A stretch of 64,000 bases of DNA, taken from the NCBI GenBank assembly GCA_002070095.1, contig MWCR01000005.1, positions 5,463 to 69,462 on the forward strand, given 5' to 3'. The stretch is from Parcubacteria group bacterium ADurb.Bin192. GTDB taxonomy: Bacteria; Patescibacteriota; Patescibacteriia; 2-12-FULL-60-25. Below, one piece after another: positions 676 to 63,838 of the stretch. A program made the translations under genes and the position numbers. Every line of letters begins with the position of its first letter. The stretch's first letter is position 1. The notes beneath the pieces are model-generated. The model worked only from the letters and a program-made list of their open reading frames with translations, was not told the DNA's origin and did no database searches.

Positions 676-760
676 AATTATTCAGTTTAATTAATTGGAC
701 CAAGCTTCCGTTGTAACAACAAAATTATATACACATTCCTCAAAAACACAATGGCCGGGC

Positions 761-1474: not shown

Positions 1475-1476
1475 AT

Positions 1477-2166: not shown

Positions 2167-2169
2167 AAC

Positions 2170-3300: not shown

Positions 3301-3305
3301 CCCTA

Positions 3306-5833: not shown

Positions 5834-5842
5834 AACCAATAA

Positions 5843-8400: not shown

Positions 8401-8440
8401 ATCGCTTAATAATAATTAACAAACATCGATTCGTCTATGT

Positions 8441-10792: not shown

Positions 10793-10796
10793 AAAC

Positions 10797-11687
10797 CTAC
10801 TTTTTCTTAGCAATTAATACCAGAGGTGTAAATGTTTTTGTTGAATATAAAAACCATGTCACCAAACTCATTAAACCAAGTCTATCAAGCACACCTATCA
10901 ATTTTTGAATTTTCCCCAGTCCAGCCCAATTGCCGACATTTTTATTTTGCATTCTTTCAAAAAACAAGGATTCGCCATAAGTCATGGGTTTTAAGATCAA
11001 GCTATGATCCTTTACCCATTTTTTTATTTTTAAGTACGTAACAAATTGCAGTGTATCAATAAATGAAGGGTCACGTCCCCAAAGCCTAACATAAATGCGG
11101 GCCAACATTTTTGGTAGATATGGAATCCAGTAGAGCACATAATGCCCTTCATAAAAAGAACCATAGTTGGGCACTGTCATATGTAAATAGCCTCCCGGTT
11201 TTACAACTCTGACCATTTCAGAAAATACTTTTTTTGGATCTTTGACATGCTCCATTACATTGGAAGAATATACAATATCAAATTCATTATCTTTAAATGG
11301 CAAATCTTCAGCCCATGCATTTACAACTCTTCCATCAGGAACACCCATTTGAGATGCAAATACTTTGCTAGTATCAAATGTTTCACCGTAGAAACCATCC
11401 GATGATGGCTCAATACCGTAAACGTCACCCCCGCGATTATAAACTTCTACCATGAATTGCCCATAGCCACTCCCTATTTCTAATATTTTTTGATTTTTTA
11501 AAGGACCAATTTCCGATTCCAAACGGTCCACTTGCTCCCGAATACGTTCCATATTAAAAACATCCTCGACGATTTTTACAGGGTCGATGGGGGATATTGA
11601 TTCGTATTCCTTTTGTATACGTTTAAAAATGTTGGCTTTTAAATCAACTAGCCACTTTTCATCTTTGTTATTAGTGTATTGCTCCAT
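10797..11687 (-). CDS. class I SAM-dependent methyltransferase
   Basis: ORF 10797..11705 starts with TTG; ATG at 11687 (MEQYTNN). Motifs ILEIGSGYGQF and DIVYSSNVMEHVKDPKKVFSEMVRVVKPGGYLHMTVPN. Confidence 0.8.
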   Translation of the reverse strand: MEQYTNNKDEKWLVDLKANIFKRIQKEYESISPIDPVKIVEDVFNMERIREQVDRLESEIGPLKNQKILEIGSGYGQFMVEVYNRGGDVYGIEPSSDGFYGETFDTSKVFASQMGVPDGRVVNAWAEDLPFKDNEFDIVYSSNVMEHVKDPKKVFSEMVRVVKPGGYLHMTVPNYGSFYEGHYVLYWIPYLPKMLARIYVRLWGRDPSFIDTLQFVTYLKIKKWVKDHSLILKPMTYGESLFFERMQNKNVGNWAGLGKIQKLIGVLDRLGLMSLVTWFLYSTKTFTPLVLIAKKK

Positions 11688-13446
11688 ATTTAGATTCTTT
11701 TTCAATAAAAATTCTATGCCACAAATCGAATAACACTAAAAAGTAAATCGTTTTTTGCTTTTTTGCTTTTTGATAGTATGAAGGTGTCGGTCTTTTTAGA
11801 AGTTTATGAATTTGCTCCGCGTCAAAATAACCCAATTCATTTATTCTAGTAATGCTAAGTGAATTTTTGATTAATCCGTGTATGACATTATCAAAAAAAT
11901 ATTGAGTTATTCCCTGTGTTCCCTTTTTGCCATATTTGGGTCTATTAATTATTTTTTCAGGCAATGCCTTTTTAAAAGCCTCGCGCAAAATAATTTTTGT
12001 CTGGTTTCCTCTTCTTTTTTGTCCCGAAGGTATTTGCAGAGCCATTTCAACGACTTTATGATCTAAAAATGGAACGCGCGCCTCAATGCCGTGCGCCATT
12101 GTCAATCTATCAATTCTAGCCAGCTGACTCTGAACCAGTTCATAAGAAATATCAAATTTAAGCGCTGAATCCAAATTATTCGGCATTGTATTAAAATCAA
12201 CTTTTTTTATCGTTGGTTTAAGTAATGCCCCAGATAATGAAATCCATTCTTCTTTTGAAGGAAAAAGATAAGATTTTTCCATTGCCCAAGACTTCAGTGT
12301 CGGTGGAAAAAATCTCCAAGGGCCAGTAAAGGGTATATATGTCGGATAACCCGCAAACAATTCATCCGAACCTTCTCCGATCAAGACTACTTTTGTATAT
12401 TTATTGGTTTTGTTCGCCAGAAAAAAACTTGTTACCGCAGTTATATTCGGCAGGGGTTCCTCAAGATGCCAAATCAAATCTTCGAGAATATTCTTCGCCT
12501 GTGACAAATCTTGATTAAAAAGATGCCAATTTACACCGGCCTCCTCAGCCATATGTTTTGCATAAGGGGTTTCATCATTGTCCAAACCATACGCCAAAGT
12601 AAACGCAGTTCGGGATTCGGGAGGTATTTGGTTTTTTACGCAACTCAAGATTATACTCGAATCGAGCCCTCCAGAAAGCCAGAATCCTAAAGGGACATCA
12701 CTAATCAGGTGCGAGATCGATGCTTTATTCAGAGCATCTCGTAGATTATGCGCATTGTCCTCTATCGTAAGCTTATTTGCAAAAAAACTCTCTTTGTCCC
12801 AATATTTATTCAAAACTAGTTTTTCGTAACCCAATTTGTACCTCATCCAACTAGCAGGAGGTAATTCCATAACTCCAGAAAAAAGTGTTTCGGGCGCTGT
12901 TCTAAAACCAAGTTGCAAATAGTTCGCTAAAGCACCCAGATTTAATTCTCTTACACCCCCCAATAAAGCCTTCATCTCTGATGCAAAAGCAAGTCCGTTA
13001 TAGGTCAATCTATAAAACAGAGGTTTGATTCCGATACGATCCCTAGCAATGAACAATTCTTTTTTACTCGTATCCCAAATTGCGAAAGCAAACATCCCCT
13101 GTAGCTTATTCAATATCTCAGTATCATATTCTGAATAACCCAGCAAAATTACTTCCGTATCCGAGTTACTATAAAATACATGCCCCGCTTTTTCCAATTC
13201 TTGTTTTAATGTTTTGTAATTATATATTTCACCGTTAAAGATTATTACAAAACGTCCATCATGGGTTATCATCGGTTGCTTGCCTTGCTCCGGATCAATA
13301 ATTGCTAGACGCCGGTGAGCTAGAGATATTGAATCCGTTTCATCAACGAACAAACCAGACCCGTCTGGTCCGCGATGAGCGATTAAATCACTCATTTTAT
13401 TTATATCAAGATCGGTTGTTCCGAGCATTCCAGCAATGCCACACAT
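11671..13446 (-). CDS. asnB: asparagine synthase (glutamine-hydrolysing) family amidotransferase
   Basis: Starts MCGIAG (N-terminal Cys nucleophile of class II glutamine amidotransferases). Synthetase-domain PP-loop-like SGGLDSS. 591 aa. Confidence 0.85.
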   Translation of the reverse strand: MCGIAGMLGTTDLDINKMSDLIAHRGPDGSGLFVDETDSISLAHRRLAIIDPEQGKQPMITHDGRFVIIFNGEIYNYKTLKQELEKAGHVFYSNSDTEVILLGYSEYDTEILNKLQGMFAFAIWDTSKKELFIARDRIGIKPLFYRLTYNGLAFASEMKALLGGVRELNLGALANYLQLGFRTAPETLFSGVMELPPASWMRYKLGYEKLVLNKYWDKESFFANKLTIEDNAHNLRDALNKASISHLISDVPLGFWLSGGLDSSIILSCVKNQIPPESRTAFTLAYGLDNDETPYAKHMAEEAGVNWHLFNQDLSQAKNILEDLIWHLEEPLPNITAVTSFFLANKTNKYTKVVLIGEGSDELFAGYPTYIPFTGPWRFFPPTLKSWAMEKSYLFPSKEEWISLSGALLKPTIKKVDFNTMPNNLDSALKFDISYELVQSQLARIDRLTMAHGIEARVPFLDHKVVEMALQIPSGQKRRGNQTKIILREAFKKALPEKIINRPKYGKKGTQGITQYFFDNVIHGLIKNSLSITRINELGYFDAEQIHKLLKRPTPSYYQKAKKQKTIYFLVLFDLWHRIFIEKESKYGAIH

Positions 13447-13447
13447 A

Positions 13448-14146
13448 TCAGCTATTTTTTTTATTCAATACAGATATTGTCATTCCGTAAAATGACCTTT
13501 TCATAAAGTCTGGCTCAAAAGAACAAACAAACGCAATGAACTTAGTTAAATATGGTATTAAGAATTTTAAATGTACCATGAAAAGTGTTAACGAAAATAC
13601 AGATGCAAACAGACTTAAGAATGAGCAAATAAGACCGCCTGTCTTTATAAATTCTACTATATTCAAGTCAGCCTCTTCGGCCAACTCTTTGATCCCATTA
13701 GTCGTAAAACGAAAATAATCATACGGCATTCCATGTTCATAGAACAAAAAAGGGGTGGCTAAAACAATATACCCATTATCAGCCAAGACTTTATGAAAAT
13801 TTTTCAATACCAGTATAGGCTTTTTTGTATGCTCGAGTACAGATATATTGACAATCGTATCAAATTCTTTTTCCTTAAATGGCATTTCGCCAGTTAAATC
13901 ACAAACGTAATCAATATCAGGATGAAAGCGCTCTACATCGCAACTGATGTATTTTTCTGAAAATTTATTTAATAGTTTTTTTCTTGATAGATAACCCGCT
14001 CCCGCATCCAAAATTTTTCCTCGCGAAAATTTTTGTAGAATCAATGTTAATTCTTTTGTAAATAAATAATTTTCAGCAGTTAAAAGCTCAAGCTGACCCT
14101 CGTTGCCATATATTTCTTGCATTTTATTCCAAGTATTCCTGAACAT
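13448..14146 (-). CDS. class I SAM-dependent methyltransferase with C-terminal hydrophobic tail
   Basis: ILDAGAGYLS and DTIVNISVLEHTKKPILVLKNFHKVLADNGYIVLATP. Tail GGLICSFLSLFASVFSLTLFMV. Confidence 0.8.
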   Translation of the reverse strand: MFRNTWNKMQEIYGNEGQLELLTAENYLFTKELTLILQKFSRGKILDAGAGYLSRKKLLNKFSEKYISCDVERFHPDIDYVCDLTGEMPFKEKEFDTIVNISVLEHTKKPILVLKNFHKVLADNGYIVLATPFLFYEHGMPYDYFRFTTNGIKELAEEADLNIVEFIKTGGLICSFLSLFASVFSLTLFMVHLKFLIPYLTKFIAFVCSFEPDFMKRSFYGMTISVLNKKNS

Positions 14147-14149
14147 ACT

Positions 14150-15112
14150 TTATATATTTATTTTTTCCTTAATACTGTACGGCATGCGGCTCTGATCCGA
14201 ATAATAAGTGCGCATTAACACCTCTGCCAGCAAGCCCGACATGATTAATTGAACACCAACGATGACAAACATCGCCCCGACAATTGGCAGTGGTGTTTGA
14301 ATGAGGCTGACTCCCAAAATAAACTTATAATAAAGTGCGCCAAGTTCAGCCAAACCACCGAGGCCAAGTGAGATAAATCCAACCGCTCCAAAAAAATGCA
14401 TCGGCTTGTTAAAATACTTCATCAAGAATTTAACCACAATCAGATCCAGTATGACTTTAAAAACACGCGAGATGCCATATTTAGAAACACCGGCGACGCG
14501 CGCTCTGTGATTGACGACTATTTCAGTAACTTTAGCTCCGGACCAGGCTGCATAAGCCGGGATAAAACGATGCATTTCGCCAAAGAGTTCTACGTCTTGG
14601 ATTATGTCGCGGTGATAGGCTTTTAAACTGCAACCGTAATCGTGCAAATGCACACCGGTCATGATGGAGATTATGGTGTTCGCCGCCCAAGATGGGATTT
14701 TTCGTAATATCAATTTATCTTTGCGATCTTTACGCCATCCGGAAACGCAAGAAAATCCCTGATAGATTTTTTCTAAAAATTTGGGAATGTCCGCCGGGTC
14801 ATTTTGCCTGTCTGCATCCATGGGAATAATGATGTCGCCCGATGCTAATTTGATACCGCAACTCATGGCCGCGGTCTGACCGCTATTGCGGCGGAATATT
14901 ACGGTTTTTACTCGACTATCTCGTATCGACAAATCTTTTAGTATCTGCGGGCTATTATCTTTGGAACCATCATCCACAAATATCATCTCAAAAAAATATT
15001 GTGGCATTTTCTCTGTCGTTTGGCAGATTTCTTCATAAAGCCCTTGCAGATTTTCCTCTTCATTATAAACAGGAATCACGAGAGAAATTGATTTTGCGCT
15101 GTTTTCAATCAT
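14150..15112 (-). CDS. GT2 glycosyltransferase, polyprenyl-phosphate glycosyltransferase-like (GtrB/ArnC type)
   Basis: ISLVIPVYNEEENL, DDGSKDNS, PMDADRQNDP, plus two C-terminal TM helices. I prefer the ATG at 15112 (MIENSAK), which overlaps the upstream AsnB stop as ATGATTGA; the ORF track extends to 15196. Confidence 0.8.
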   Translation of the reverse strand: MIENSAKSISLVIPVYNEEENLQGLYEEICQTTEKMPQYFFEMIFVDDGSKDNSPQILKDLSIRDSRVKTVIFRRNSGQTAAMSCGIKLASGDIIIPMDADRQNDPADIPKFLEKIYQGFSCVSGWRKDRKDKLILRKIPSWAANTIISIMTGVHLHDYGCSLKAYHRDIIQDVELFGEMHRFIPAYAAWSGAKVTEIVVNHRARVAGVSKYGISRVFKVILDLIVVKFLMKYFNKPMHFFGAVGFISLGLGGLAELGALYYKFILGVSLIQTPLPIVGAMFVIVGVQLIMSGLLAEVLMRTYYSDQSRMPYSIKEKINI

Positions 15113-17009
15113 ATTTATATGCCCCAGCATCATACCACAATTGAAACATGAAAAAAGCCCATAATTCCTTACGCCTGTCAATCTTACCGCTTGCATGCTC
15201 GACTATCATGTCTTGAACTGATTTTGGGTTAAAAACACCCTGATTTTGCAATCTTTCTTTAGAGGATAACCCGGCAAGGCGATCTTTAAGAGGTCCGTTT
15301 AACCAGGCACCAACCGGGGCGGCAAAACCGTGTTTAGGGTGGCTTAAAACACCTTCCGGAACTTTACCGCGCAGAAGTTCTTTGAATAGCCGCTTGCCTT
15401 TATAAGCTCCGAGCTTATATTTATTCGGTACATTTAACAAATATTCAACAACTCGGGTATCCAAAAACGGAGCACGCGCCTCGAGTGCATACCACATGGT
15501 AGCTCGATCGACTTTAACAAGGACTTCGTCCATCAAAAAGGTGCGGAGGTAGGCATAAGACCAGCGGGGCCAGAAACTATCGTACTTCGTACATCGTACA
15601 TCGTACAATAATTCGGAGGCGCGGGAGCGGAGAGATTGTTCGGCGTAGTTTGTATCTATTTGGGACGCGAATTCGGGTTGGAGGAGGTTTTGGAGATAAT
15701 TCCCTGTCATTGCCCCGCGCCAGCGCACATCACGCGCCCAAGCATCAGGCGCACCCAATCCCCTAGCCATACGTTGAGCCTTGAAACCAAGGCTAAAATA
15801 ACCATCGCCCGCAGGAACAGAATTTAACATCCTTGCCAATAGACGTGGGACGTAGGACGAGCGACGTGGGACGATATTGAGTAGCTGATGAGCGGGAACA
15901 TGTTGATAGCCGAGTAGAAGTTCATCACCGCCATCCCCCGAAAGAGCAACTGTAACGTGTTGGCGAGTGAATTTTGACACTAGTAGTTGCGGTAAAATTG
16001 ATGCATCAGCCAAAGGCTCGTCCAATAATTGTTGAGCTTGATCGATCATTTGCAATGCGTCGCTGGCAGATAAAATCTCGAGATAGTGATCTAATCCCAA
16101 AGCTTCTGCAGTCTGTTTTGCATAAATACTTTCATCGTGGCTTTTGTCGTCAAAACCTATGGTAAAAGCCTGCAAACGACGATTAGCCTGACGGGATGCA
16201 CTTTCAGCAATCACAGCCGAATCAAGCCCGCCCGAGAGGAATAAACCCAAAGGAACATCCGCAACCAAGCGCTCGCGGACTGCGATATCGATAAGTTCTT
16301 GCAGGCCTTGAAGAACTTGCTTAGCACCCCGATCCTCCTGCTTTATGATTTCAGGTTGCCAAAATTTCCATTGACTTTGAATTTGACCGCCTTGCCAGGA
16401 CATGGCCGTGGCCGGTTCGAGTTTAAAGACATTTTTAAAAATTGTGTGCGGAGTGGGAACAGCATCAGTTTGAAAGTAGCAGGCCAAAGACAAGGGGTCG
16501 ATTTCACGTTTGACAACTCCGGAAGCAACTAGCGATTTCAATTCCGAGGCGAACCAAAGAGTTTGGTTGTGGATCGTCCAATAAAGTGGTTTTTTACCCA
16601 ACCTATCCCGTGCGATGATCAAACGTTTTTTGCGCACATCCCAGATTGCGATGGCGAACATGCCATTGAGATACTTGAAGCAATCATCTCCCCATTGCTC
16701 GTAAGCGTGTGCGATTACTTCCGTGTCACTTTTTGTATGAAATACATGATCGGAGGCCTCAAGCTCCGCACGGACGCTTTGGTAGCCGTAGATCTCGCCA
16801 TTCATGATTACCCAGACAGTGCCATCCTCATTGGATAATGGTTGATGCCCTCCGGATACGTCGATAATGCTTAGGCGACGGAAGCCCATACCGATGCCAT
16901 CAGCAACATAAAAACCCTCGTCATCAGGCCCACGATGCTTGATGACGTTCGTCATTCTCTGCAATTGTTCTTTGCTCCCCGCTCCGGCAAAGCCAGCGAT
17001 TCCGCACAT
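15105..17009 (-). CDS. asnB: asparagine synthase (glutamine-hydrolysing) family amidotransferase, paralog 2
   Basis: The ATG at 17009 gives MCGIAGFAG; the track start 17015 is TTG. SGGLDSA PP-loop. Carries two in-frame heptamer-repeat-derived segments (LYDVRCTKYDS and IVPRRSSYVPR). Confidence 0.85.
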   Translation of the reverse strand: MCGIAGFAGAGSKEQLQRMTNVIKHRGPDDEGFYVADGIGMGFRRLSIIDVSGGHQPLSNEDGTVWVIMNGEIYGYQSVRAELEASDHVFHTKSDTEVIAHAYEQWGDDCFKYLNGMFAIAIWDVRKKRLIIARDRLGKKPLYWTIHNQTLWFASELKSLVASGVVKREIDPLSLACYFQTDAVPTPHTIFKNVFKLEPATAMSWQGGQIQSQWKFWQPEIIKQEDRGAKQVLQGLQELIDIAVRERLVADVPLGLFLSGGLDSAVIAESASRQANRRLQAFTIGFDDKSHDESIYAKQTAEALGLDHYLEILSASDALQMIDQAQQLLDEPLADASILPQLLVSKFTRQHVTVALSGDGGDELLLGYQHVPAHQLLNIVPRRSSYVPRLLARMLNSVPAGDGYFSLGFKAQRMARGLGAPDAWARDVRWRGAMTGNYLQNLLQPEFASQIDTNYAEQSLRSRASELLYDVRCTKYDSFWPRWSYAYLRTFLMDEVLVKVDRATMWYALEARAPFLDTRVVEYLLNVPNKYKLGAYKGKRLFKELLRGKVPEGVLSHPKHGFAAPVGAWLNGPLKDRLAGLSSKERLQNQGVFNPKSVQDMIVEHASGKIDRRKELWAFFMFQLWYDAGAYKYD

Positions 17010-17011
17010 AA

Positions 17012-18634
17012 TCAAGGCTTAACTTCTGCTAATGCGTAATTTTTGTTTTGGAAAATAATTTGTGTGTCTGAAAGCTTTGAATGATCAATTTGTTCAGAGG
17101 GATATAGGATGTGTGTGGCGTGTGTTTCTTCCGCGATAATTTGCAGTTCGGCCATATCTTTATTTTTGTATGCTTCTTTAATTCTTTCAGTTAACGCAAA
17201 ACCACGTTGCCTCGCCTCGTAACCTTGAGTCAAGCCGCCTTTGTCTTTATCAGCGATTACGATGCTTCTTAATGCAAATCCTCTAATTTCCATTGAAATA
17301 CCACTTACCGGCGATAAAATTTTACTATCAATCGGTGTTTGATTTTTGATATAACGATAGAGCTCCACACGATTCTGAAAACGCTCACTGTTCTTAAGCC
17401 AATCAGCCTGATGACGGATGGTATAAATTATATTTGATGCACCTACTAAAATAAAAATGTACAGTGCAAAGCCTAATATAATTTTTCCCTTTTTACCTAT
17501 TGAAATTTCTGTATCCAAGAATTTGATAACAACAAGATAAAATAGAGCTAAGAACAAAAACTGTGAAAATCCGCTGGCGCCCTGGAACATGAAAAAGAAA
17601 TATGAATAATTCTCAAGTAAAATCGCAACAAATGTAAGAATCGCAGAAATTATTATTATTTTCATTAAAGTATTTTCGAATTGTTCATAATTTCCTATTT
17701 TTTTAAATACTTGGTTACTCTTAAGTTTTGCTTGAAAAAACCAAAAAGCAAAAAGTAGTACAATAGGTACTAAAAATCGACGGGCGCTGGCGATAAAATA
17801 TTGAGGACTCTCTAGTGAAATATAAGGTGTTAGTACTTTTGTATCCGGATCTGTAAGTAAACCCGTACCATGTATTCGTAATACTTCAAAAAATGGCAAT
17901 GGCATCAACAATATACAAACCACACACAATACCAACAAGTTTTTTAATTTCAATGTTTTTTGCCAAGCGACACACAAGGTCATTATTACCAGCAGGTGCG
18001 TAAACACGACTGCGTATATATTTACCAGTAACGCTGTTACGATAAAGACACTATATATCCATTTTTCATTTTTATTATTTACAGCCTTTAAAAACGCACC
18101 AAATATAACAAAACCCAGCGCAATAGCGATACTATGCGTATTGTATCCTCCAATAAAACCTCCAAGCCAAATACCGGCAAATATCTGGAAACCAAAAATA
18201 AAAAGTGTTGAAAATATAAAACTCCAAAATTTATTTTTAGTCCGGTCCCAAAGTGTCAAGAATACGGCAAAGACTATTATTATATTTAAAATTAATCCGA
18301 TTAGTCCTGATGATACAATCACGTCGAGATGTATGAGTTGTGATAGTTTTGCCAGTGTTGGATAGATAAACTCTCGTTCACTGAATAACCTTAACTCACC
18401 GTTAAAATGCACATCTTGCACAAAACACTCCGGACAAATTTCATACTGGATTCCTGTCACCTGCAGTGGCACGTCTGTATTTAAGTATAAATACCCAAAA
18501 GGAATTTGACCAAAAATATTTGGCCAAAGATAAAAACCGATCACTGTAAACAATAAGCCCAAATAGAGCCACGGTGAATTGCTCGCTTTTTTCTCCGTTT
18601 TTCCAATGTTTGACGATGTAATATCGGAATTCAT
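17012..18634 (-). CDS. polytopic membrane protein (possible glycan polymerase or GT-C-like; function from context only)
   Basis: 540 aa. At least 10 hydrophobic helices followed by a ~120-aa soluble C-terminus. Very low GC. No motif I can name. Confidence 0.55.
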   Translation of the reverse strand: MNSDITSSNIGKTEKKASNSPWLYLGLLFTVIGFYLWPNIFGQIPFGYLYLNTDVPLQVTGIQYEICPECFVQDVHFNGELRLFSEREFIYPTLAKLSQLIHLDVIVSSGLIGLILNIIIVFAVFLTLWDRTKNKFWSFIFSTLFIFGFQIFAGIWLGGFIGGYNTHSIAIALGFVIFGAFLKAVNNKNEKWIYSVFIVTALLVNIYAVVFTHLLVIMTLCVAWQKTLKLKNLLVLCVVCILLMPLPFFEVLRIHGTGLLTDPDTKVLTPYISLESPQYFIASARRFLVPIVLLFAFWFFQAKLKSNQVFKKIGNYEQFENTLMKIIIISAILTFVAILLENYSYFFFMFQGASGFSQFLFLALFYLVVIKFLDTEISIGKKGKIILGFALYIFILVGASNIIYTIRHQADWLKNSERFQNRVELYRYIKNQTPIDSKILSPVSGISMEIRGFALRSIVIADKDKGGLTQGYEARQRGFALTERIKEAYKNKDMAELQIIAEETHATHILYPSEQIDHSKLSDTQIIFQNKNYALAEVKP

Positions 18635-18713: not shown

Positions 18714-19733
18714 TCAAGTAATTTTGTTTAAAATTACTTTTACCAACCTACATAAAGAATGCTTTTCTTCTACCTCAAGTTTTCCAACGTGATGAGTAGC
18801 TACTGTAAACAAGATGTCATGCATCTTTGAAAAATCATCTAGAATAAACTCGTAACTGATCACACCCTTTATTTGTTGGTAACCTTCGCCTCTGGCGATA
18901 ACCGGCACTCCGCAGGCTAAAGCCTCTAAAACCACTTTATCAATACTCCCTGTTTGACTGGTACTCAAAAAAAGTTTAGCGCGTTGATAAACGTCCGGCA
19001 ACCGCTCATATTCCATGGCCGGTAAAATACGAAATCTTTCCGCCAAGCCCAATTGTTCAGCTTTTTGGTTTAATGATTGGACATAGTCTTCGTGCCCTAA
19101 TGACGGTCCGATAATTTCATAAACCCATTGATCTTCCGGATATTTTTCTTTGTATTTTGCCAAAAATTCCAAAGAATCTTCATATTTTTTTGCGGGTGTA
19201 ATTCGTGAAACCGTAATTATTATATTCTCTTTTTTTACTTCCGAATCAGGCTTGAATAATGCCGTATCTATCCCCTGCCCCACAAATCTAGCTTTAGGCG
19301 TAGGCAAACGCAAACCTGTTTCCGAACTTGCAAAAATCAATTTAACCAATGGTTCGGCTAATTTTAACGCTAAAGGGATAGCGCCGTGCGCATACCAAAG
19401 ATAAATGGGTTTGCGTAATACAAACCAAATCGGCCAGCCGGCAAGCACCACTTCAGGCGACATATGAACAAAAACCGCGTCATATTTTTTTCTGTGCTTA
19501 AACGCAGAATGCCAAATTTTTAAAACCCGAGGCAGCCAAGCTTTACCAAGAGCAACCCCGATGGATCCGGCTGGCACATCGCTTTCATCAACATACCGGC
19601 TGATTAAAACCAAAGGACCCGCTTGTTTGGCAAATTCAGCCATCCAATTAACAGAAAACCCAAATACCGGGTCGTCATGTTTCAATGTCGGCGTATATAT
19701 TAATAATCTTTTTGAATTGTGACTATTTTCCAT
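18714..19733 (-). CDS. glycosyltransferase family 1/4
   Basis: 339 aa. IITVSRITPAKKYEDSL ... SQTGSIDKVVLEALACGVPVIA, a GT-B C-terminal signature. Confidence 0.75.
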   Translation of the reverse strand: MENSHNSKRLLIYTPTLKHDDPVFGFSVNWMAEFAKQAGPLVLISRYVDESDVPAGSIGVALGKAWLPRVLKIWHSAFKHRKKYDAVFVHMSPEVVLAGWPIWFVLRKPIYLWYAHGAIPLALKLAEPLVKLIFASSETGLRLPTPKARFVGQGIDTALFKPDSEVKKENIIITVSRITPAKKYEDSLEFLAKYKEKYPEDQWVYEIIGPSLGHEDYVQSLNQKAEQLGLAERFRILPAMEYERLPDVYQRAKLFLSTSQTGSIDKVVLEALACGVPVIARGEGYQQIKGVISYEFILDDFSKMHDILFTVATHHVGKLEVEEKHSLCRLVKVILNKIT

Positions 19734-22209
19734 ATGACCTTAATCTCAAGTCATGATTTTCAATCGCCTTTTCAACAAACTCCCCAAAAGTATTATTTCC
19801 TTTCAATCCAGACGCAGCTAAAGACTGAACGGTTAAACGATTTTGGAGCATGGCGAGCATGGCCTGACTCAAACCATGCACATCTCCCACAGGCACAACA
19901 TAACCGTTTTCACCGTTTTTAACCACCTCACCGGCACAACCCACATTGGTCATAATAACAGGCGTGTGACACATTAGCGACTCCACAGCCGTCATGCCAA
20001 AACCCTCTCCGTCCGAGGTGATGAGCGTGGCTACTGCTCCTTGATATAGTTCAGTCAAATTATCGGTCCAAGGGATGATCTCGACTCCAGCTTGTAATTC
20101 AAAATCAGCTATCCACTGCTTAACCTGACCCTCCAACGGCCCAGCCCCCACGATTTTAAGCTTAATATCAGGATCTTGCTTAACAACAAGACTGAAGGCA
20201 TGGATGGCGAGGTCTATGCGTTTAATGGGAACGAACCTGCAAACCAAGAGGAAATATCGTCCTACGTCGCACGTCCCGCGTCCCACGTCAACCGACGTAT
20301 TCCCGATAATTGATGATTGGTTATTGATTATTGGTAATTGGTTATTGGTAATTAAATTCAGCGGGAAACGGACCATCTTCTCTCGCGAGATACCAAGATT
20401 AGCAAGTGCATCTTCGGTTCTTTGACTGACAACTCGGATGGCATCCGCGCGTTTTACCAGCCACTTGGCCAACCAATATCTGAAATGATTTAAAAACGAC
20501 TCTTGATAATAATACTTTCCATGAAAATGATAGCCGTGATCCTGAACCGCTAAGGCTGAATTGCACAATCTGGCTGATATGGCGCCCACCAAACCTGTCT
20601 CTACGGGATCTTGCGTGATAACGACTTTAATATCCGTGTTTCTGATTTTCCAGGCCTGCACCAAGGCATCCCAGACATAAAAAAACTTATGCCAAGAATG
20701 AGTGGAGATGACGCGCACATTGGGCGCGATTTGCTCATCAAACTTTTGCTTGGCAAAAACGATGATGACAGCCTCGAAATCTTTTAACTGATCAACAATT
20801 CTATCCCGCACTTTTCCGGGCTCAAAGAGTTTACGCTCAAGGCTGATAGACAGGATGCGCTGACGCTGGTCATGATTTGAATCACGCCCCTGGATTCCCG
20901 TTTTCACGGGAATGACAATGGGGGTGACGTGGGACCCGCCTTCGCCGAAGCTTCGGTGGGCAGGCGCGGGACGCGGGACAGCTTGCCCCGTCGATACGGG
21001 GTGCGACGATAAAATCGAGAACGTTTCATTTATCATCCTCTCAAAACCAAGCTTATCCGGCAACCCAACGCGGGACGTGGGACGAGCGACGAGCGACGAT
21101 GCGATGGCTTCAACCCATGCTTGTTTATTTAAATACTCGGCCACCGTTACCAAGCCCGGAAAAAGTTCAGCGATTTCCGGATTCCCGCCTTTGTCGCTGA
21201 CAATGCAAGGCAGACCCGTGGAAGCGGCTTCAACGACCACATGCGGAAAACCTTCATAGCCCGTGGCGAGCACGAATAAATGAGCCTTATGATACCACTC
21301 GGTTAATTCAGCCCGTGACAACCGGCCCAGCCACATAACGCGATCCGCCACGCCTATTTCTTGTGCGTGCTTTTTCCAATTCTCCAACTCCGGCCCATCA
21401 CCCGCCACCGCCAAAACATATTCTTCCGGCAAATCTTTGATAACATCACACAAAAAATCCCCACCCTTCCAAGGCACAGCTCGTACGGCCGTCAAGATCA
21501 CTTTTCGTCGCTCGTCGCTCGTCCCACGTAAATCTGACGCGAGACGTGGAAGCGACGAAATAGAATTATAAACAACGTTTATCTTATCAGCCGGGATACC
21601 CCACTTAGTAACGATTGTTTTAAGATACTTGGACGGCACAATAATCTGCTTAGCCCGCGACGCCACCCACCTCTCAACCGCCTCCATCAACCAAATCTTC
21701 CCCTCATGCCGACGCGTCACAAACTCATCCAGCAATTCAAACCCTCGTCGCTCGTCGCTCGTCCCAATCGTCCCGCGTACTTCTGACGTGGGACGCAGGA
21801 CGTGCGACGCGGGACGTTGCTGGTATTGTTCCCACGCATAATCCCCCACTACTTTTAGAACAAGAGGTTTACGAGCAAAAATTGACGCCAAGGTAGCCGG
21901 CAACCCCTCTGACACCGGCCCTTGCGCATAAACCACATCCGCCTGGCGCGCAAGTTTGTAAGCATTCCAAAAATACATCCAGTATCTTTGTACGATGGCA
22001 CGCGTGTTCGCGAACGCCGTGCCGATGTACGATGTACGATGTACGACCGTAACTTTATAATTTTCACCAATCTCTGTTTTCTCGTCCCCGTATGTGATGA
22101 CAGCCACCTCATGACCTTGCCTCGCGAGTTCAGTCGCGACACCCTTAACATACCCGGCCGGTCCGCCGATTTCGGGAGGGTATATTCCAGTGGCTATTAA
22201 TAACTTCAT
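19723..22209 (-). CDS. tandem double GT4 glycosyltransferase (two GT-B units joined by a repeat-derived linker; several in-frame repeat insertions)
   Basis: Unit 1 is MKLLIATGIYPPEIGGPAGYV...ATGYEGFPHVVVEAASTGLPCIVSD. Unit 2 is RILSISLERKLFEPGKVRD...SDGEGFGMTAVESLMCHTPVIMT and has no start codon of its own. The linker HPVSTGQAVPRPAPAHRSFGEGGSHVTPIVIPVKTGIQG is encoded by hairpin modules. Confidence 0.75.
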   Translation of the reverse strand: MKLLIATGIYPPEIGGPAGYVKGVATELARQGHEVAVITYGDEKTEIGENYKVTVVHRTSYIGTAFANTRAIVQRYWMYFWNAYKLARQADVVYAQGPVSEGLPATLASIFARKPLVLKVVGDYAWEQYQQRPASHVLRPTSEVRGTIGTSDERRGFELLDEFVTRRHEGKIWLMEAVERWVASRAKQIIVPSKYLKTIVTKWGIPADKINVVYNSISSLPRLASDLRGTSDERRKVILTAVRAVPWKGGDFLCDVIKDLPEEYVLAVAGDGPELENWKKHAQEIGVADRVMWLGRLSRAELTEWYHKAHLFVLATGYEGFPHVVVEAASTGLPCIVSDKGGNPEIAELFPGLVTVAEYLNKQAWVEAIASSLVARPTSRVGLPDKLGFERMINETFSILSSHPVSTGQAVPRPAPAHRSFGEGGSHVTPIVIPVKTGIQGRDSNHDQRQRILSISLERKLFEPGKVRDRIVDQLKDFEAVIIVFAKQKFDEQIAPNVRVISTHSWHKFFYVWDALVQAWKIRNTDIKVVITQDPVETGLVGAISARLCNSALAVQDHGYHFHGKYYYQESFLNHFRYWLAKWLVKRADAIRVVSQRTEDALANLGISREKMVRFPLNLITNNQLPIINNQSSIIGNTSVDVGRGTCDVGRYFLLVCRFVPIKRIDLAIHAFSLVVKQDPDIKLKIVGAGPLEGQVKQWIADFELQAGVEIIPWTDNLTELYQGAVATLITSDGEGFGMTAVESLMCHTPVIMTNVGCAGEVVKNGENGYVVPVGDVHGLSQAMLAMLQNRLTVQSLAASGLKGNNTFGEFVEKAIENHDLRLRSYGK

Positions 22210-22217
22210 AAACCAAC

Positions 22218-22870
22218 GTCTAGACCTTGATTAACTTGATTACGCTCAGATTATCCTTGATTACTTAATGACAGACCAAATTCAACTTAATGATGCTCAG
22301 ATTATCCCTGATTACTTAATGAGCTGAATTATGATTAACATAATTACTTTGGGTTAACAACTTATCACTGCCTGATTTAAATTTGTTGTTGTATATTCTT
22401 TTAAATTCTAAACTTTTTGCGCCAAAATTAATTAATAGCCCGATTTCAACATTATAAGCCTCAAGATAATTCATGGCTTGCGCCAAATGAGCATTATCCA
22501 ATTCAGTTGCCGCCTTAAGCTCAAGCATAACACAATTCTCAACGAAAAAATCCACTCTGCGCGTTCCTATATCAAAACCTTCATAATAAATCTTCATTTC
22601 TTTTTCCCTCTCAAATTCCAATCCTTGCATCTGCATCTCAATTTTTAAAGCACGCTGATATATAACCTCTTGAAAACCATTCTTCAAAACCCCATGAACT
22701 TTCATCGCGCATCCAATAATTTTATGGGTAATTTCATAAGTGTCCATATATACAGTCGCCATTTCAATAAATAATCCCGGAAAAATTTAAGCGTCATCGC
22801 GTTAAATTTGGTTTTGTCATTTAGTAATCAAGGTTAATCTGAGCGTAATCAAGTTAATCAAGGTCTAGAC
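22218..22870. mobile_element. TIR-bounded cassette carrying a GxxExxY gene (56-bp terminal inverted repeats)
   Basis: IR-L at 22218-22273 (gtctagaccttgattaacttgattacgctcagattatccttgattacttaatgaca) matches the reverse complement of IR-R at 22815-22870 at 54/56 positions, by manual alignment. Confidence 0.6.
22316..22762 (-). CDS. GxxExxY family protein (PD-(D/E)XK nuclease-like fold)
   Basis: NGFQEVIYQRAL contains G-x-x-E-x-x-Y. Also RVDFFVENCVMLELKA and AQAMNYL..LLINFG, typical of the family as I remember it (TIGR04256). Confidence 0.8.
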   Translation of the reverse strand: MATVYMDTYEITHKIIGCAMKVHGVLKNGFQEVIYQRALKIEMQMQGLEFEREKEMKIYYEGFDIGTRRVDFFVENCVMLELKAATELDNAHLAQAMNYLEAYNVEIGLLINFGAKSLEFKRIYNNKFKSGSDKLLTQSNYVNHNSAH

Positions 22871-25528: not shown

Positions 25529-25760
25529 CAGCTCCGTGGATTCCCGTTTCCCCCACCTACGCTTCACTAACAAAGCTCTGGTGGGCACAGCACGGGAATG
25601 ACAAAATGACGGTCATGTCATTGCGAGGAATGAGTCCGACGAATGCCACGGCACGGCGTTCGCGAACTCCGTGCCGTGGCAATCTGCTTAGAGTATCAGG
25701 CTGATTAGCGAGATTGCCGCGCTCCGCTCGCAATGACAATGTTAGTTTTGACGCAGGACG
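25529..25760 (+). repeat. composite hairpin repeat, copy 1 (ggattcccg...cgggaatgac module + gtcattgcgag...ctcgcaatgac long hairpin)
   Basis: The first ~100 nt are nearly identical to 27322-27420 (one indel); the remainder is similar in module order. The long hairpin spans 25617-25737 with a nested ggcacggcgttcgcgaac(t)ccgtgcc stem. Confidence 0.85.
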
Positions 25761-25938
25761 CGGGACGAGCGACGCAGGACGTTAGGTACGTGAGAGGACG
25801 TTATGTACGCTAAGTACGTGGCACGTTGTTACATGCTACATGCTATGTGCTATATGCTACATGCTATGTGCTACATGCTACATGCTACATGCTATGTGCT
25901 ATATGCTACATGCTATGTGCTACATGCTACATGCTACA
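25750..25938 (+). repeat. 7-bp-periodic array: GACGNNN units grading into 16 x TGCTAYR units with a 49-bp higher-order duplication
   Basis: gacgcag gacgcgg gacgagc gacgcag gacgtta at 25750-25784, then 25827-25938 = 16 consecutive heptamers. 25841-25889 and 25890-25938 are identical 49-mers. Confidence 0.9.
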
Positions 25939-25973
25939 TGAAAATGGACGTTATTCACGATCCGTTGTAATTT

Positions 25974-27251
25974 ATGCTTATGAGCCAAGTTAAGCCGATT
26001 CTGCTCATGGTTACCAGCCAAGACTGGGGCGGAGCCCAAGCCTATGTTTTTAATTTGGCGCTTGAAATGAAATCACAAGGCCTACCCGTCATCATCTGCG
26101 CCGGCTCTGCCCCGACGCGGGACGACTCTTTGGGCCAAAAATGCCATTCCGCAGGCATTGACTTCATCGAAATAAAACACCTGGCGCGCAATATAAATCC
26201 GATAGATAATTTTTTAGCTCTGATTGAACTGATAAAATTATTCAGACGCGTCCAACCCCGGGCCATTCAACTCAATAGCTCCATGATGGGCGCCGTCGGT
26301 TCTTTAGCCGGGTATCTGACAAAAGTGCCCAAGATAGTTTACACGGCTCATGGCTGGGTTTTTAATGAACAATTGCCGAACTGGAAAAAAACTTTATATA
26401 TTTGGATAGAAAAAATATCAGCTCGCTTAAAGCACGTGATTATTTGCTTGCATGATCAAGATTTGGAGCTGGCTAAAAAACACGGAATTAAACCACGACA
26501 AAAAATCACCGTTATTCCTAACGGGATTGATGCTATAACTTTTGAAAAAAACCTTGCCGGACGGGAAGAGGCTTGTAAGACATTAAGCGAGATTGCCGCG
26601 CTCGTCGGACTCCCTCGCAATGACAATGTTAGTTTTGACGTAGGACGCGGGGTCCTTCCTTTCGCGAAAGGAGGGAGGACATTGGGTTTTTTGTTACATG
26701 CTACATGTTACATGTTTTGTGACGAGCGACGTGGGACGTTAGTCGGCACGGTGGCCAACGCCTATCCGCCCAAAAACCTGCTTTGGTATTTGGAGGTGTG
26801 CCAAGCTGTGCACGCTAAGGATCCTGATATCCGTTTTGTGATTGCGGGCGATGGTCCGCAAATGGAAGAATTAAAAGCCAAACACCGGGCACTTGAGCAA
26901 GAAGAATATGTTTTACTGACCGGCAGATTAGACCCGGCCGGTATTTATCAAGCTTTTGATATTTTTGTTTTGCCCTCGAGCAAAGAAGGCATGCCCATCA
27001 CTATCTTAGAGGCCATGGCCGCCAAACTGCCGATTATCGCCACGGATGTGGGCGCCTGCCGCCTGATGCTCGAGCCGGACGCGGGCCTGATTGTCCCGCC
27101 CAATGATTTATCAACCTTGACTCAAACCATTCTGGATTTGACGGATGACGCGGATAAACGCCAAAAACTGGGCCAACAAGCCTACCAAAAAGTTACTCAA
27201 AATTTTACCTGGCAAAATACCGCTGATCAGACCATAAAAGAACTCCTCTAA
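25974..27251 (+). CDS. glycosyltransferase family 4 with ~51-aa in-frame repeat-derived insertion
   Basis: ILLMVTSQDWGGAQAYV...VIPNGIDAITF...[SEIAALVGLPRNDNVSFDVGRGVLPFAKGGRTLGFLLHATCYMFCDERRGT]LVGTVANAYPPKNL...SSKEGMPITILEAMAAKLPIIATDVG. Confidence 0.8.
   Translation: MLMSQVKPILLMVTSQDWGGAQAYVFNLALEMKSQGLPVIICAGSAPTRDDSLGQKCHSAGIDFIEIKHLARNINPIDNFLALIELIKLFRRVQPRAIQLNSSMMGAVGSLAGYLTKVPKIVYTAHGWVFNEQLPNWKKTLYIWIEKISARLKHVIICLHDQDLELAKKHGIKPRQKITVIPNGIDAITFEKNLAGREEACKTLSEIAALVGLPRNDNVSFDVGRGVLPFAKGGRTLGFLLHATCYMFCDERRGTLVGTVANAYPPKNLLWYLEVCQAVHAKDPDIRFVIAGDGPQMEELKAKHRALEQEEYVLLTGRLDPAGIYQAFDIFVLPSSKEGMPITILEAMAAKLPIIATDVGACRLMLEPDAGLIVPPNDLSTLTQTILDLTDDADKRQKLGQQAYQKVTQNFTWQNTADQTIKELL
26587..26741 (+). 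repeat. intragenic copy of the composite repeat (half long-hairpin + GACGNNN + TTACATG heptamers)
   Basis: gcgagattgccgcgctcgtcggactccctcgcaatgacaatgttagttttgacgtaggacgcgg closely matches intergenic 25708-25765. Followed by ttacatg ctacatg ttacatg and gacgagc gacgtgg gacgtta. Confidence 0.85.
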
Positions 27252-27321: not shown

Positions 27322-27546
27322 CAGCTCCGTGGATTCCCGTTTCCCCACCTACGCTTCACTAACAAAGCTCTGGTGGGCACAGCACGGGAATGACAAAATG
27401 ACGGTCATGTCATTGCGAGGAGTCCGACGACGCGACACGGCGTTCGCGAACGCCGTGTCGCGGCAATCTGCTTAGACAGCTAACTCATAAGCGAGATTGC
27501 CACGCTCCGCTCGCAATGACAATATTGGTTTAGACGTGCGACGTTA
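27322..27546 (+). repeat. composite hairpin repeat, copy 2 (direct repeat of 25529-25760)
   Basis: Same module order and orientation as copy 1. Ends in gacgtgc gacgtta immediately before the stop codon (27553) of the next minus-strand gene. Confidence 0.85.
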
Positions 27547-36712: not shown

Positions 36713-37040
36713 TGTGGATTCCCGTTTTCATAAGAAAACAACAATCATGTCATTGCGAGGAATGTAATCATGACGTGGCAATCTGCTTAGACGACTAGCC
36801 AATAAGCGAGATTGCCGCGTCGTCGGACTCCTCGCAATGACATGGTGGCATTTTAATGATTTAGTGATGACGTCCCTCTTTTTGTCATCCTCGCGTAGGC
36901 GGGGATCCAGTTTATAAACTCACCCTAACCCTCTCTTAAGATTAAGAGAGGGAAAGTAAGCTCGAAAGTGGAGCACAGCTCTGTCGTAGGACGACTGGGA
37001 CGTGCGACGTAGGACGTGCGACGAGCGACGTTAAATACGC
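36713..37040 (+). repeat. intergenic cluster of hairpin modules ending in a GACGNNN heptamer array
   Basis: gtggattcccg; long hairpin gtcattgcgagg...cctcgcaatgac (36749-36841); gtcatcctcgcgtaggcggggatcc; ccctctcttaagattaagagaggg; then heptamers gacgact..gacgtgc gacgtag gacgtgc gacgagc gacgtta (about 36983-37035) running into the stop of the next gene. Confidence 0.85.
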
Positions 37041-38257
37041 TAATAATTTCCGTAAATCCGTTCCAACCCGGCCAAATGTTTTTCCCAAGTATGTTTTTGA
37101 TTAACCAACTCCCGGCCCGCATCACCCATTTCCAATCTTTGTTCCGGACTAAAAGTTTCCATTTGATTAATCGCCTCGATCAAAGATTCTATCTTGCCGG
37201 GGTCAACCAAAAAACCATTGATACCATCCTGCGCGAGTTCCGGAATGCCTCCCAAGTTGGAAGCTATCACGGGCGTACCCAAAGCCATGGCTTCCAAAAT
37301 AGACAAGGAAGAATTTTCGTACATCAAAGTCGGCTGAATCAAAGCCTTGGCCTTGGATACCTGCTCCGCGACCAAAGCGCTGTCCAAAAAACCCAAAAAC
37401 TCAACTTTATCCGAACCTGATTGCTCAACCAATTTATGCAATTCATGTTTTTGCGGCCCGTCACCGATAATCAACAGCCTGCTTTGTGTATTGGCGCGCA
37501 AAAAAGCCCTGATCAAAATCTCCGGGCCTTTTTCAGCTGACAACCGGCCCACATACACATAATCACCCGTGCCGCGTTCCGCGGATAACTGCTTGACTTG
37601 CTCAACCGGATTGGGCAGATAAACCAATTTTCCGGGCGGCTCTCCCCAGTCTTCCATTTTTCGGCGCATGAATTCCGAAGGACAAATAAAACGCGTGACC
37701 GCTTTTTCATAGCTCTGAAAAAACTTGGTCATGTACATTTCGGAAGAGGCCAGCAAGCTGGGCCAAAATCCACCCAAACAGCCATGGCAAACAGCGTTGT
37801 AATACTTACCGCCCCGGCACCGCTCGCATGGCCGTCCGCCGACAAACATTTTATAGTTGGGACAAGCCAGTTTGTAATCGTGTAAAGTTTGAAAACAGGG
37901 GATAGAGTGCCGGTTAATCACCCTCAAGAGGCTGGTGGATAAGTGATGATAAATATTATGCAAATGCACCACGTCCGGCTTCAGATCGGAAATCTGTCTT
38001 TCAAAAGATTTTTCAGCTTCCGTATTCCACACAAAATTTTTAGCCTTTTTCAAATCCAAAACCGCGCCTTCCGCTTTATCGTACGCGTAACGAGTGACAA
38101 AATAATTTTTATCCACAGTTGGCAAATTGCGCTCTGACCGGGTTGAAAAAGCGTGCACCTCATGCCCCGCCTCCTGTTGTTTTTTAATCAAGGAATGCAA
38201 ATAAACTTCAGCTCCCCCATTCAAATCAAAAAATTTATTAACGTGCAAAATCTTCAT
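37040..38257 (-). CDS. glycosyltransferase family 4
   Basis: MKILHVNKFFDLNGGAEVYLHSL...YVGRLSAEKGPEILI...MYENSSLSILEAMALGTPVIASNLGGIPE. Confidence 0.85.
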   Translation of the reverse strand: MKILHVNKFFDLNGGAEVYLHSLIKKQQEAGHEVHAFSTRSERNLPTVDKNYFVTRYAYDKAEGAVLDLKKAKNFVWNTEAEKSFERQISDLKPDVVHLHNIYHHLSTSLLRVINRHSIPCFQTLHDYKLACPNYKMFVGGRPCERCRGGKYYNAVCHGCLGGFWPSLLASSEMYMTKFFQSYEKAVTRFICPSEFMRRKMEDWGEPPGKLVYLPNPVEQVKQLSAERGTGDYVYVGRLSAEKGPEILIRAFLRANTQSRLLIIGDGPQKHELHKLVEQSGSDKVEFLGFLDSALVAEQVSKAKALIQPTLMYENSSLSILEAMALGTPVIASNLGGIPELAQDGINGFLVDPGKIESLIEAINQMETFSPEQRLEMGDAGRELVNQKHTWEKHLAGLERIYGNY

Positions 38258-47065: not shown

Positions 47066-47145
47066 CGGTATCTCCTTGAACTTACGCGGTCTGAACCATC
47101 TTGGCCAGCCGCCTTGTTGCGCTGTTGTTGAGCCGCGAACGGGGG

Positions 47146-50009: not shown

Positions 50010-50495
50010 GTATAACATATTCACGAAACATGCAGCACGTAACATGCAACAACACCCTACAACAAAACTAACATTGTCATTGCGAGCGGAGCGTAGGCGG
50101 AGCGCGGCAATCTGCTTAGACAACTGGCTAATTAGCGAGATTGCCACGGTACGGCACTCGCGAGTGCCGTACCACGGTACGGCGTTCGCGAACGCCGTAC
50201 CGTGCTCGTCGGACTCGCTCGCAATGACATGATTGTTGTTTTGTCATTCCTGCGGAGGCAGGAATCCACGGAGCCAGGGAACCCTCTCTTAATCCCTTCG
50301 ACTGCGCTCAGGGCAGACTTAAGAGAGGGCAGGGTGAGTTTATAAACCAAAACCCCGCGTTCCCCACTCCGCTGACCCAACTTCGCATAAAGCTTCGATG
50401 GATTCAGCTTCGTGGGACAAGGCGCGAGGATGACGAAGGTTCGCTAACGCGGGACGATTGGGACGTGCGACGTAGGACGTTATATATGTTACGAG
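50010..50495 (+). repeat. intergenic cluster of hairpin modules and heptamer arrays
   Basis: Heptamers aacatgc/agcacgt (about 50027-50047). Expanded long hairpin gtcattgcgag...ctcgcaatgac (50076-50228) with two nested ggtacgg..ccgtacc stems. gtcattcctgcggaggcaggaatccac (50243-50269). The ccctctcttaa...ttaagagaggg module is in the opposite orientation to the 36.9-kb copy. GACGNNN array at about 50447-50495, overlapping the mreB stop. Confidence 0.85.
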
Positions 50496-63693: not shown

Positions 63694-63838
63694 ACAAATA
63701 TAAATTATGAATTAATGACCAATAACCAAATCCCAATCACCAATTAAGGCATCGCCATTTATTGTTTATTAATTATTGAATATTGGTTATTAAGTGATTG
63801 ATCATTTGATTATTGGTTATTGGTTATTAAATGATTGG

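Follow-up and report, generated by a model that had tools for sequence, protein, structure and literature searches.

Dispersed heptanucleotide and hairpin repeats lying in frame in a tandem GT4 glycosyltransferase gene of a Parcubacteria group bacterium

Described counterparts of the locus

Several described repeat systems bear on the subject of this report, a gene for a tandem GT4-GT4 glycosyltransferase in which heptanucleotide arrays and short hairpins, of kinds also dispersed between genes, lie in frame. The gene is carried on a 64,000-nt stretch of DNA (hereafter the window, in which all coordinates are counted) from Parcubacteria group bacterium ADurb.Bin192, specifically contig MWCR01000005.1, positions 5,463 to 69,462, of assembly GCA_002070095.1. 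Among the counterparts are the Rickettsia palindromic elements (RPEs), selfish palindromes found both between genes and in frame within unrelated genes (Ogata et al., 2000, Science 290:347; as summarized in PMC10969869). The likeness lies in the presence of copies in non-coding DNA and in insertion in frame at sites compatible with the fold, where the insert would be translated as extra peptide. RPEs, however, measure ∼100–150 bp, have a conserved family consensus and peptide, usually occur once per gene, and belong to an alphaproteobacterium, whereas the modules described here are 16–30-nt hairpins and heptamer arrays at six sites in one gene of a member of the Patescibacteria, and no kinship in sequence is to be expected. 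The tandem GT4 locus thus acts as an RPE insertion would, but it does not belong to the RPE family.

Small dispersed repeats (SDRs) are known from Nostoc, including a case of SDR5 insertion, as cited in PMC5861425. The resemblance here is that both datable hairpin insertions, at Site 1 of the window gene and Site 4 of its ortholog L003, lie inside heptamer arrays: a 27-nt hairpin in a TACATCG array in the window only, and a hairpin in a CAACGTG array in L003 only. In 2008 Elhai et al. reportedly described Nostoc SDR4–6 as hairpins of 21–27 nt within heptameric tandem repeats, with mobility deduced from presence or absence at orthologous loci, and these elements are said to lie mainly between genes or in RNA genes. 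Unlike the cyanobacterial SDRs, the repeats described here come from another phylum, have other sequences, and are concentrated in one coding gene family.

Heptamers are the most abundant class of long simple-sequence repeats in bacteria, where they are intergenic and under-represented in genes, according to PMC4692102 and PMC4679880 (and Mrazek et al., 2007, therein); examples are GGGNATC arrays in Xanthomonas and Nostoc (PMC4692102) and TAACTGA arrays in Beggiatoaceae (PMC4679880). The repeats of the window share with these the dominance of period 7, short arrays of 2–6 units, inverted pairs, intergenic copies near gene ends, and heterogeneous units around a conserved core, which is (GGGANTN)n in known heptamers and (GACGNNN)n here. 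Genes are expected to admit only unit lengths divisible by 3; the heptameric repeats of the window, unlike the known ones, are over-represented within a coding gene, where they are read in a 21-nt register. A parallel with GGGNATC repeats prompted the idea that the GACG arrays form G-quadruplexes, which was dropped since regular G-tracts were absent. Tandem repeats also occur in surface-glycan glycosyltransferase genes at the contingency loci of Haemophilus influenzae, where repeat number likewise varies among strains (PMC2651432). Those loci typically carry long perfect tracts of 1–5-nt units, one per gene, with frame-shifting strain differences, whereas the arrays described here are short, imperfect, 7-nt based, spread over six sites, and in frame in all assemblies compared.

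The enzyme itself is a member of the multi-unit GT4 fusions of Patescibacteria (GT4-GT4, GT4-GT4-GT4, and GT4-GT4-PMT_2), with which it shares domain order, gene neighborhood, and 33–85% identity; the clade of the window differs in that the third unit is a separate, overlapping open reading frame (ORF) and in its lineage-specific insert content. In the literature searched, no account of in-gene heptamer or hairpin repeats in Patescibacteria was found. The locus would extend the phenomena known from RPEs and Nostoc SDRs to the Candidate Phyla Radiation (CPR) and would offer a clear natural example of selfish micro-repeats creating disordered protein loops.

A tandem GT4 enzyme and its six repeat sites

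The gene is a single ORF with two GT4 units (Table 1), as the preliminary description of this DNA had stated. Exactly this product is recorded as NCBI OQB19204.1, from a metagenome-assembled genome of the Parcubacteria group, and the same protein was found on 3 contigs. Pfam domains Glyco_transf_4 and Glycos_transf_1 were found twice in the 828-residue ORF (E 2e-62 and 5e-28), with PF00534 at 210 bits and PF13439 at 98.6 bits, each over 2 stretches and each exceeding the Pfam gathering cut-off, and GT4 enzymes from the PDB align to the C-terminal domains of both units. Each of these C-terminal domains carries one E-x7-E motif, EGFPHVVVE (aa 319–327) or EGFGMTAVE (aa 735–743), and 58 homologs all retain the four glutamates E319, E327, E735, and E743. 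Unit 2 does begin at RILSISL, as proposed earlier, but an in-frame GTG (V434) sits 17 codons upstream, contrary to the statement that the unit has no start codon of its own.

The gene was compared as DNA with its close orthologs L001–L003 (four genes in all). The ratio of nonsynonymous to synonymous substitution rates (dN/dS) was 0.03–0.24 in the catalytic blocks of both units and 0.4–0.75 in the inter-unit linker. Because of the low ratios in the glycosyltransferase (GT) blocks, purifying selection is taken to keep the reading frame of the gene, in agreement with the earlier view that selection had held it open, and the ORF is judged on these sequence comparisons to encode a working, selectively maintained enzyme. 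An AlphaFold model built on a 58-sequence alignment had a mean predicted local distance difference test score (pLDDT) of 85 and consisted of four blocks of alternating strand and helix with pLDDT >90, separated by low-confidence insert loops; two Rossmann-like domains per unit are thus present in the predicted structure. The pLDDT was <50 only at aa 136–155, 407–446, and 622–648 and dipped at aa 61–70, 221–230, and 371–380, and these segments coincide with all six repeat sites. The claim that dispersed repeat modules occupy loops and the inter-unit linker, for which mapping of the inserts by structure prediction had been suggested as a check, therefore stands for every site.

The modules within the gene are heptanucleotide arrays and 16–27-nt GC-rich hairpins. 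Site 1 is a turn and Site 2 a loop of an N-domain, Sites 3 and 6 join the N to the C domain at equivalent places in units 1 and 2, respectively, Site 4 lies where unit 1 ends, and the remaining modules occupy the linker. At Site 1, where three copies of tacgatg and a hairpin had been placed at 21997–22048, the hairpin and the TACATCG array were both recovered and jointly encode HRTSYIGTAFANTRA (aa 57–71); owing to the ATC duplication, the placement of the insertion is ambiguous by 3 nt. The three GACGNNN arrays of the preliminary description correspond to the GACG/CGTC heptamers of Sites 2, 3, and 4, the first of which has a folding energy of −42.5 kcal/mol (z = −3.7) and a pLDDT <50. The linker hairpins, earlier assigned to 20890–21010, are likewise three in number (20986–21001, 20939–20956, and 20892–20916). 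The 14-unit run proposed for Site 6 held only in part, in that heptamers do occupy the site but form two unrelated arrays of 4.6 and 5.4 units with a spacer. All arrays in the gene are short, with 2.1–5.4 units and 77–100% match; some are perfect at only ∼3 units, and the rest match at 77–94%. Net insertions relative to 57 homologs were confined to aa 62–71, 135–153, 406–444, and 626–647, and Sites 3 and 4 are variable loops with no net gain in length. The repeat features listed earlier were all found at, or close to, the coordinates given for them.

The inserts would be translated as low-complexity, disordered peptide loops, and TSYIGTAFANTR is one encoded stretch whose predicted tryptic peptides would cross insert junctions. 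For annotators, low-complexity segments such as GTSDERR, RPTS, NNQLPII, and VIPxxAGIQ in CPR proteins may be recognizable as translated repeats. A protein search with array peptides returned no candidates for a 48-aa concatenate and 0 of 1.84 billion representatives for a 30-aa segment, a query probably too short and too low in complexity, so that the result says nothing on absence. Rfam and tRNA scans of the window gave no match.

Modules of the same kinds were found outside genes, as had been claimed. The core of the Site 1 hairpin recurs at intergenic positions 25650–25675, 27434–27459, and 50177–50200, the linker hairpin GTCATTCC..GGAATCC recurs at 50243–50267, and intergenic GACGNNN arrays occur at 25750, 27533, 36999, 45145, and 50462. 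These five share one orientation, with GACG on the + strand; four of them end in GACGTTA, and for four the 3′ end of a minus-strand gene is no more than 35 nt away.

Table 1. Positions of the tandem GT4 gene, its repeat sites, and related features in the window.
Feature	Position	Strand	Description
Tandem GT4-GT4 glycosyltransferase ORF	19723..22209	(-)	828 codons, ATG start
GT4 unit 1	21010..22209	(-)	aa 1-400; E-x7-E motif at E319-E327, window 21229-21255
GT4 unit 2	19723..20859	(-)	aa 451-828, starts RILSISL; E-x7-E motif at E735-E743, window 19981-20007
Site 1 hairpin	21997-22023	(-)	GGCACGGCGTTCGCGAACACGCGTGCC; 27 nt
Site 1 TACATCG array	22023-22046	(-)	3.4 copies, 100% match; target of hairpin insertion
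Site 1 insertion	21997..22026	(-)	30 nt = 27-nt hairpin + 3-nt ATC duplication; encodes IGTAFANTRA, aa 62-71
Site 2	21742..21816	(-)	composite inverted pair (CGTCNNN)x5, spacer, (GACGNNN)x5; 75 nt; aa 132-156, RPASHVLRPTSEVRGTIGTSDERRG
Site 3	21505..21549	(-)	GACG/CGTC arrays; N-to-C domain connector of unit 1; LRGTSDERR, aa 227-235, encoded at 21505-21531
Site 4	21064..21104	(-)	CGTC-type array near unit 1 end; ARPTSRVG, aa 375-382
Inter-unit linker	20872..21000	(-)	aa 404-446, pLDDT <50; hairpins and CGCGGGA x2 at 20965-20979
Site 6	20257..20353	(-)	AACCAAT-type array 20307-20353 and GACG array 20258-20292; aa 622-651
Third GT4-like unit, separate ORF	18714..19733	(-)	start overlaps 828-aa ORF stop by 11 nt (19723-19733), ATGGAAAATAG
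Composite in GT4 gene 25974..27251(+)	26614..26741	(+)	right terminal inverted repeat, AATGTTAGTTTT, GACG array, TACATGY array, GACG array, in frame
Two in-frame heptamer arrays	15579-15607, 15842-15876	(-)	in asparagine synthase (AsnB) gene 15105..17015, aa 470-479 and 381-392
Intergenic repeat island	25617..25940	(+)	MITE-like element 25617-25737, GACGNNN array 25750-25784, TACATGC x16 25830-25940
Intergenic repeat island	50076..50482	(+)	hairpins 50177-50200 and 50243-50267; GACGNNN array 50462-50482
Intergenic GACGNNN array	36999..37033	(+)	just 3′ of GT4 gene 37040..38257(-)

Turnover of the repeats and competing explanations

Alignment to orthologs, which had been proposed as a check, revealed an intact array, different modules, and 21-nt length steps among the closest genes. 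The TACATCG array is uninterrupted in L001, exactly where the window gene carries a clean 30-nt hairpin insertion, and that insertion is unique to the window genome. In L003, a hairpin of the Site 1 type occupies another site (∼aa 375), inside the CAACGTG array, and shows compensatory stem changes (GACACG...CGTGTC). Compensatory stem changes also distinguish the linker hairpin GTCATTCC..GGAATCC from its copy in L003, which is identical to the intergenic copy of the window at 50243–50267, and the repeat content of the linker differs among the close orthologs. At Site 3, three unrelated modules were found among the four genes within flanks that are 88–100% identical, and at Site 6 the lengths of the AACCAAT-type array differ by 21, 42, and 63 nt, that is, in three-unit steps. 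Gain, loss, and replacement of repeats in the gene are, on this comparison, evidently recent. All four close alleles are mosaics as well, and the nearest neighbor of the window gene switches among L001, L002, and L003 in 60-nt blocks near array sites (aa 41–60 matches L001, aa 160–179 matches L003, and aa 363–403 is closest to L002), which suggests that recombination between diverged alleles contributes to module turnover.

Through this turnover, the reading frame was preserved. All 40 period-7 arrays in twelve orthologs were frame-preserving, and length differences among the four close orthologs were multiples of 3 or 21 nt, arrays and lengths being read from consensus assemblies, in which minority variants do not show. 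The GC-rich modules were free of stops in 5–6 of the 6 frames, inside and outside genes, and because they are nearly stop-free, survival of such a module in a gene needs only a length that is a multiple of three. Two candidates for loss of frame were rejected: the ortholog in L005, suspected of a frameshift at an array, starts downstream and has a single frame, and the split or truncated members P0125/126 and P0131/132/134 of a related 90% cluster, considered as phase-off alleles, are contig or assembly breaks in conserved sequence and not at arrays.

The arrays are concentrated in this gene to a degree that the preliminary description did not record. Among tandem repeats of the window, period 7 accounted for 9 arrays and any other period from 4 to 12 for 0–2, and period 7 was dominant in 12 of 14 related loci. 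Eight of the 12 coding period-7 arrays of the window lie in the tandem GT4 gene, which makes up 4.4% of the coding DNA (p = 6e-9), and across twelve orthologous loci the ortholog takes up 21% of the DNA but contains 40 of the 47 arrays (p = 7e-21). The ortholog arrays cluster at seven positions, corresponding to aa 55–75, 131–158, 222–230, 369–381, 403–447, and 621–652 of the window protein and to a position after aa 788, at the border of units 2 and 3, and their units (CGAAATA, CGAGATA, TTCCAAG, TACCCAG, ACCAATT, GCTATCC, CGTCNNN, and TACATCG) are lineage-specific. By these counts, the tandem GT4 gene family is a recurrent array hotspot, in which the same loops are occupied by lineage-specific units.

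We consider it probable that an ancestral tandem GT4-GT4 enzyme has come to tolerate, in frame and in six flexible loops, the repeats dispersed in its genome. Modules would persist where the fold tolerates extra residues, and those rich in GC would survive with almost no stops in any frame. Purifying selection would weed out every length event that is not a multiple of three, and because of that removal heptamer arrays would change in 21-nt (7-codon) steps. The arrays themselves may be generated by replication slippage, the hairpins may arise via template switching or a trans-acting enzyme, and homologous recombination may spread modules between alleles. Several observations weigh against this explanation. 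Arrays numbered 3.2 per kb within the gene, compared with 0.63 per kb between genes (p = 0.004) and 0.07 per kb in the remaining coding DNA, and four other GT4 genes of the window, with the same fold, have no array; loop tolerance by itself thus fails to account for the hotspot. The Site 2 composite is 87–89% identical in DNA to its counterpart in an ortholog whose protein is just 63% identical, whereas closer orthologs hold other content at this site, and an identity at or above that of the best-conserved catalytic blocks hints at constraint or exchange and not at neutral junk. The scanned ORFs of the window yielded no enzyme that might mobilize the hairpins.

An earlier proposal was that two GT4 genes were joined by a spacer colonized by repeats, with selection holding the frame open. 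The linker at aa 404–446 is indeed almost wholly repeat hairpins and absent in most homologs, and in L013 and L014 the units are partitioned as [GT0+GT1][GT2+GT3], with units 1 and 2 in separate ORFs. Homologs of the protein, all from Patescibacteria, include two-unit proteins of ∼735–835 aa and three-unit proteins of ∼1100–1280 aa, in which the third unit is a homolog of the ORF downstream (18714..19733) or a PMT_2 domain. Units 1 and 2, however, share one frame in 12 of 12 orthologous loci (49–85% identity) and are fused in GT4-GT4-PMT_2 proteins of ∼1200 aa (33–38% identity). They are joined in P0032 (38% identity) by a repeat-free linker of only a few residues. As the units are fused in all of these, including P0032, the fusion is ancestral and older than the present repeats, whose effect was only to extend a linker already there; the variation of linker repeats among close orthologs also marks the repeats as younger than the fusion. 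We therefore regard a repeat-made fusion as decidedly unlikely, with the caveat that, to judge from the family, fusion and fission at unit borders do happen. The third unit itself is split off in the clade of the window but fused in frame in many relatives (1100–1280 aa). Separately, the linker that joins the third unit in relatives was observed to be rich in heptamer arrays.

The frame bears on the remaining alternatives. An undescribed removal mechanism had been raised earlier. RNA excision or translational bypass, for example, would keep the inserts out of the protein, and their frame would then be irrelevant. Their capacity to fold as hairpins, as at Site 2, speaks for this; yet every insert, in the window gene as in twelve orthologs, has a length divisible by three and is stop-free in frame, and because removal before translation would constrain neither length nor stops, these data lend it no support. 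Nor are the inserts anywhere near long enough to be group I or II introns or inteins; the window has no Rfam match, and this alternative is very unlikely. That the long ORF is a pseudogene or an assembly artefact, opened through junk DNA by chance or by a chimera, is hardly credible. The DNA does stem from a metagenome-assembled genome, and repeats are easily misassembled, but both units show low dN/dS, their catalytic motifs are invariant, the identical protein occurs on 3 contigs from several sources, and orthologs from independent samples have intact ORFs. A contingency locus, in which 7-nt slippage would reversibly switch off or truncate the enzyme and so vary the surface glycan within a population, is an unlikely but more serious alternative. 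It would suit the strong and recurrent hotspot, the array density above that of intergenic DNA, the arrays at GT-unit borders (the fifth and seventh of the clustered positions), where fusion and fission occur in the family, and the precedent that simple-sequence repeats in Haemophilus glycosyltransferase genes are a classic device of phase variation (PMC2651432). The arrays are nevertheless short and mostly imperfect, with no long near-perfect tract, all ortholog arrays are in frame in the consensus assemblies, six arrays per gene would be redundant as an on/off switch, and arrays also occur in the housekeeping genes LeuRS, TrmD, and AsnB.

It has also been considered, as an unlikely possibility, that the tandem-GT4 family of Patescibacteria is a targeted or positively selected hotspot of hypervariation, and not a passive dumping ground. 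Arrays and hairpins at connectors and unit borders would then act as slippage tracts and recombination breakpoints, by which loop cassettes might be swapped rapidly in populations, acceptor-domain segments shuffled between alleles, and fused, split, or truncated GT arrangements switched. The hints come from the density of arrays in the gene above that of intergenic DNA, the same loops with lineage-specific units, the mosaic breakpoints near arrays, and the varied unit partitions. If this were true, the cell-surface glycans of these episymbiotic cells would be diversified. The recurrence of the hotspot in a glycosyltransferase of the cell envelope gives a lead, open to testing, on how surface glycans vary in these little-understood CPR bacteria.

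Repeats in other genes, between genes, and in the neighborhood

In-frame repeats were not confined to the tandem gene. The composite at 26614–26741 is the solo right end of an element resembling a miniature inverted-repeat transposable element (MITE), followed by arrays; it encodes LPRNDNVSFDVGRG...LHATCYMFCDERRG and falls in the N-to-C domain connector of its GT4 gene. In the asparagine synthase gene, next to array 15579–15607, are 16 residues that the homolog in L015 lacks. Further in-frame heptamer arrays were seen in two hairpin-bearing metagenome contigs, at L070 5914–6053 and L121 6860–7183, in LeuRS-like and TrmD-like ORFs, respectively, both assigned by eye from motifs.

Between genes, four MITE-like elements of 93–153 bp were found (25617–25737, 27409–27520, 36749–36841, and 50076–50228). 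Like MITEs, they occur in several copies and consist of a short non-coding unit flanked by terminal inverted repeats, here the perfect 11-bp pair GTCATTGCGAG / CTCGCAATGAC; the element at 25617–25737 has GTCATTGCGAG termini and holds the hairpin at 25650–25675. Three of the four contain the ACGGCGTTCGCGAAC hairpin (36749–36841 is the one without it), and two are directly followed by a GACGNNN array. Dense repeat islands built of these elements occupy the larger gaps between genes. Past the gene that ends at 63345, an AT-rich heptamer array of ∼12 TTATTGA/TTATTGG units (63759–63847) is related to the AACCAAT-type array within the tandem gene, and stop codons close all six of its frames.

The hairpin core ACGGCGTTCGCGAAC.C.GT gave at least 118 matches in metagenome contigs. 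In contigs of 44–57% GC, the core forms an extended hairpin, and its copies are mostly intergenic, nested in GTCATTGCGAG/CTCGCAATGAC MITE-like units, or placed just after tRNA 3′ ends; matches in contigs of ≥60% GC fell within ordinary coding sequence and were discounted as chance. In 327 kb of hairpin-bearing metagenome contigs, 58 period-7 arrays were found, mostly intergenic, vs. at most 5 of any other period.

By gene content, the entire window is a region for polysaccharides of the cell envelope, with several GT4 and GT2 genes, Wzy-like genes, epimerases, methyltransferases, and the asparagine synthase. Just upstream of the tandem GT4 gene is a slot for variable small genes, which holds a PD-(D/E)XK (PF13366) gene in the window (22316–22762, minus strand) and in L015 (9569–9982) and a 23S_rRNA_IVP (PF05635) gene in L002 (2603–3004) and is empty in L003; in the window, direct repeats lie after (22230–22320) and before (22825–22862) the PD-(D/E)XK gene. 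Composition differs sharply along the window, with 32–41% GC and polysaccharide genes at 1–15000 and ∼49% GC at 20000–64000, and the low-GC first 15 kb has only one short period-6/7 tandem array (6563–6581). Two genes, at 41778–43364 (plus strand) and 45176–47155 (minus strand), encode Gly/Thr/Cys-rich repeat proteins with CxxxC..GT.C modules; both have 60–68% GC vs. a window mean of 46% and contain 9-, 18-, 66-, and 150-nt tandem repeats.

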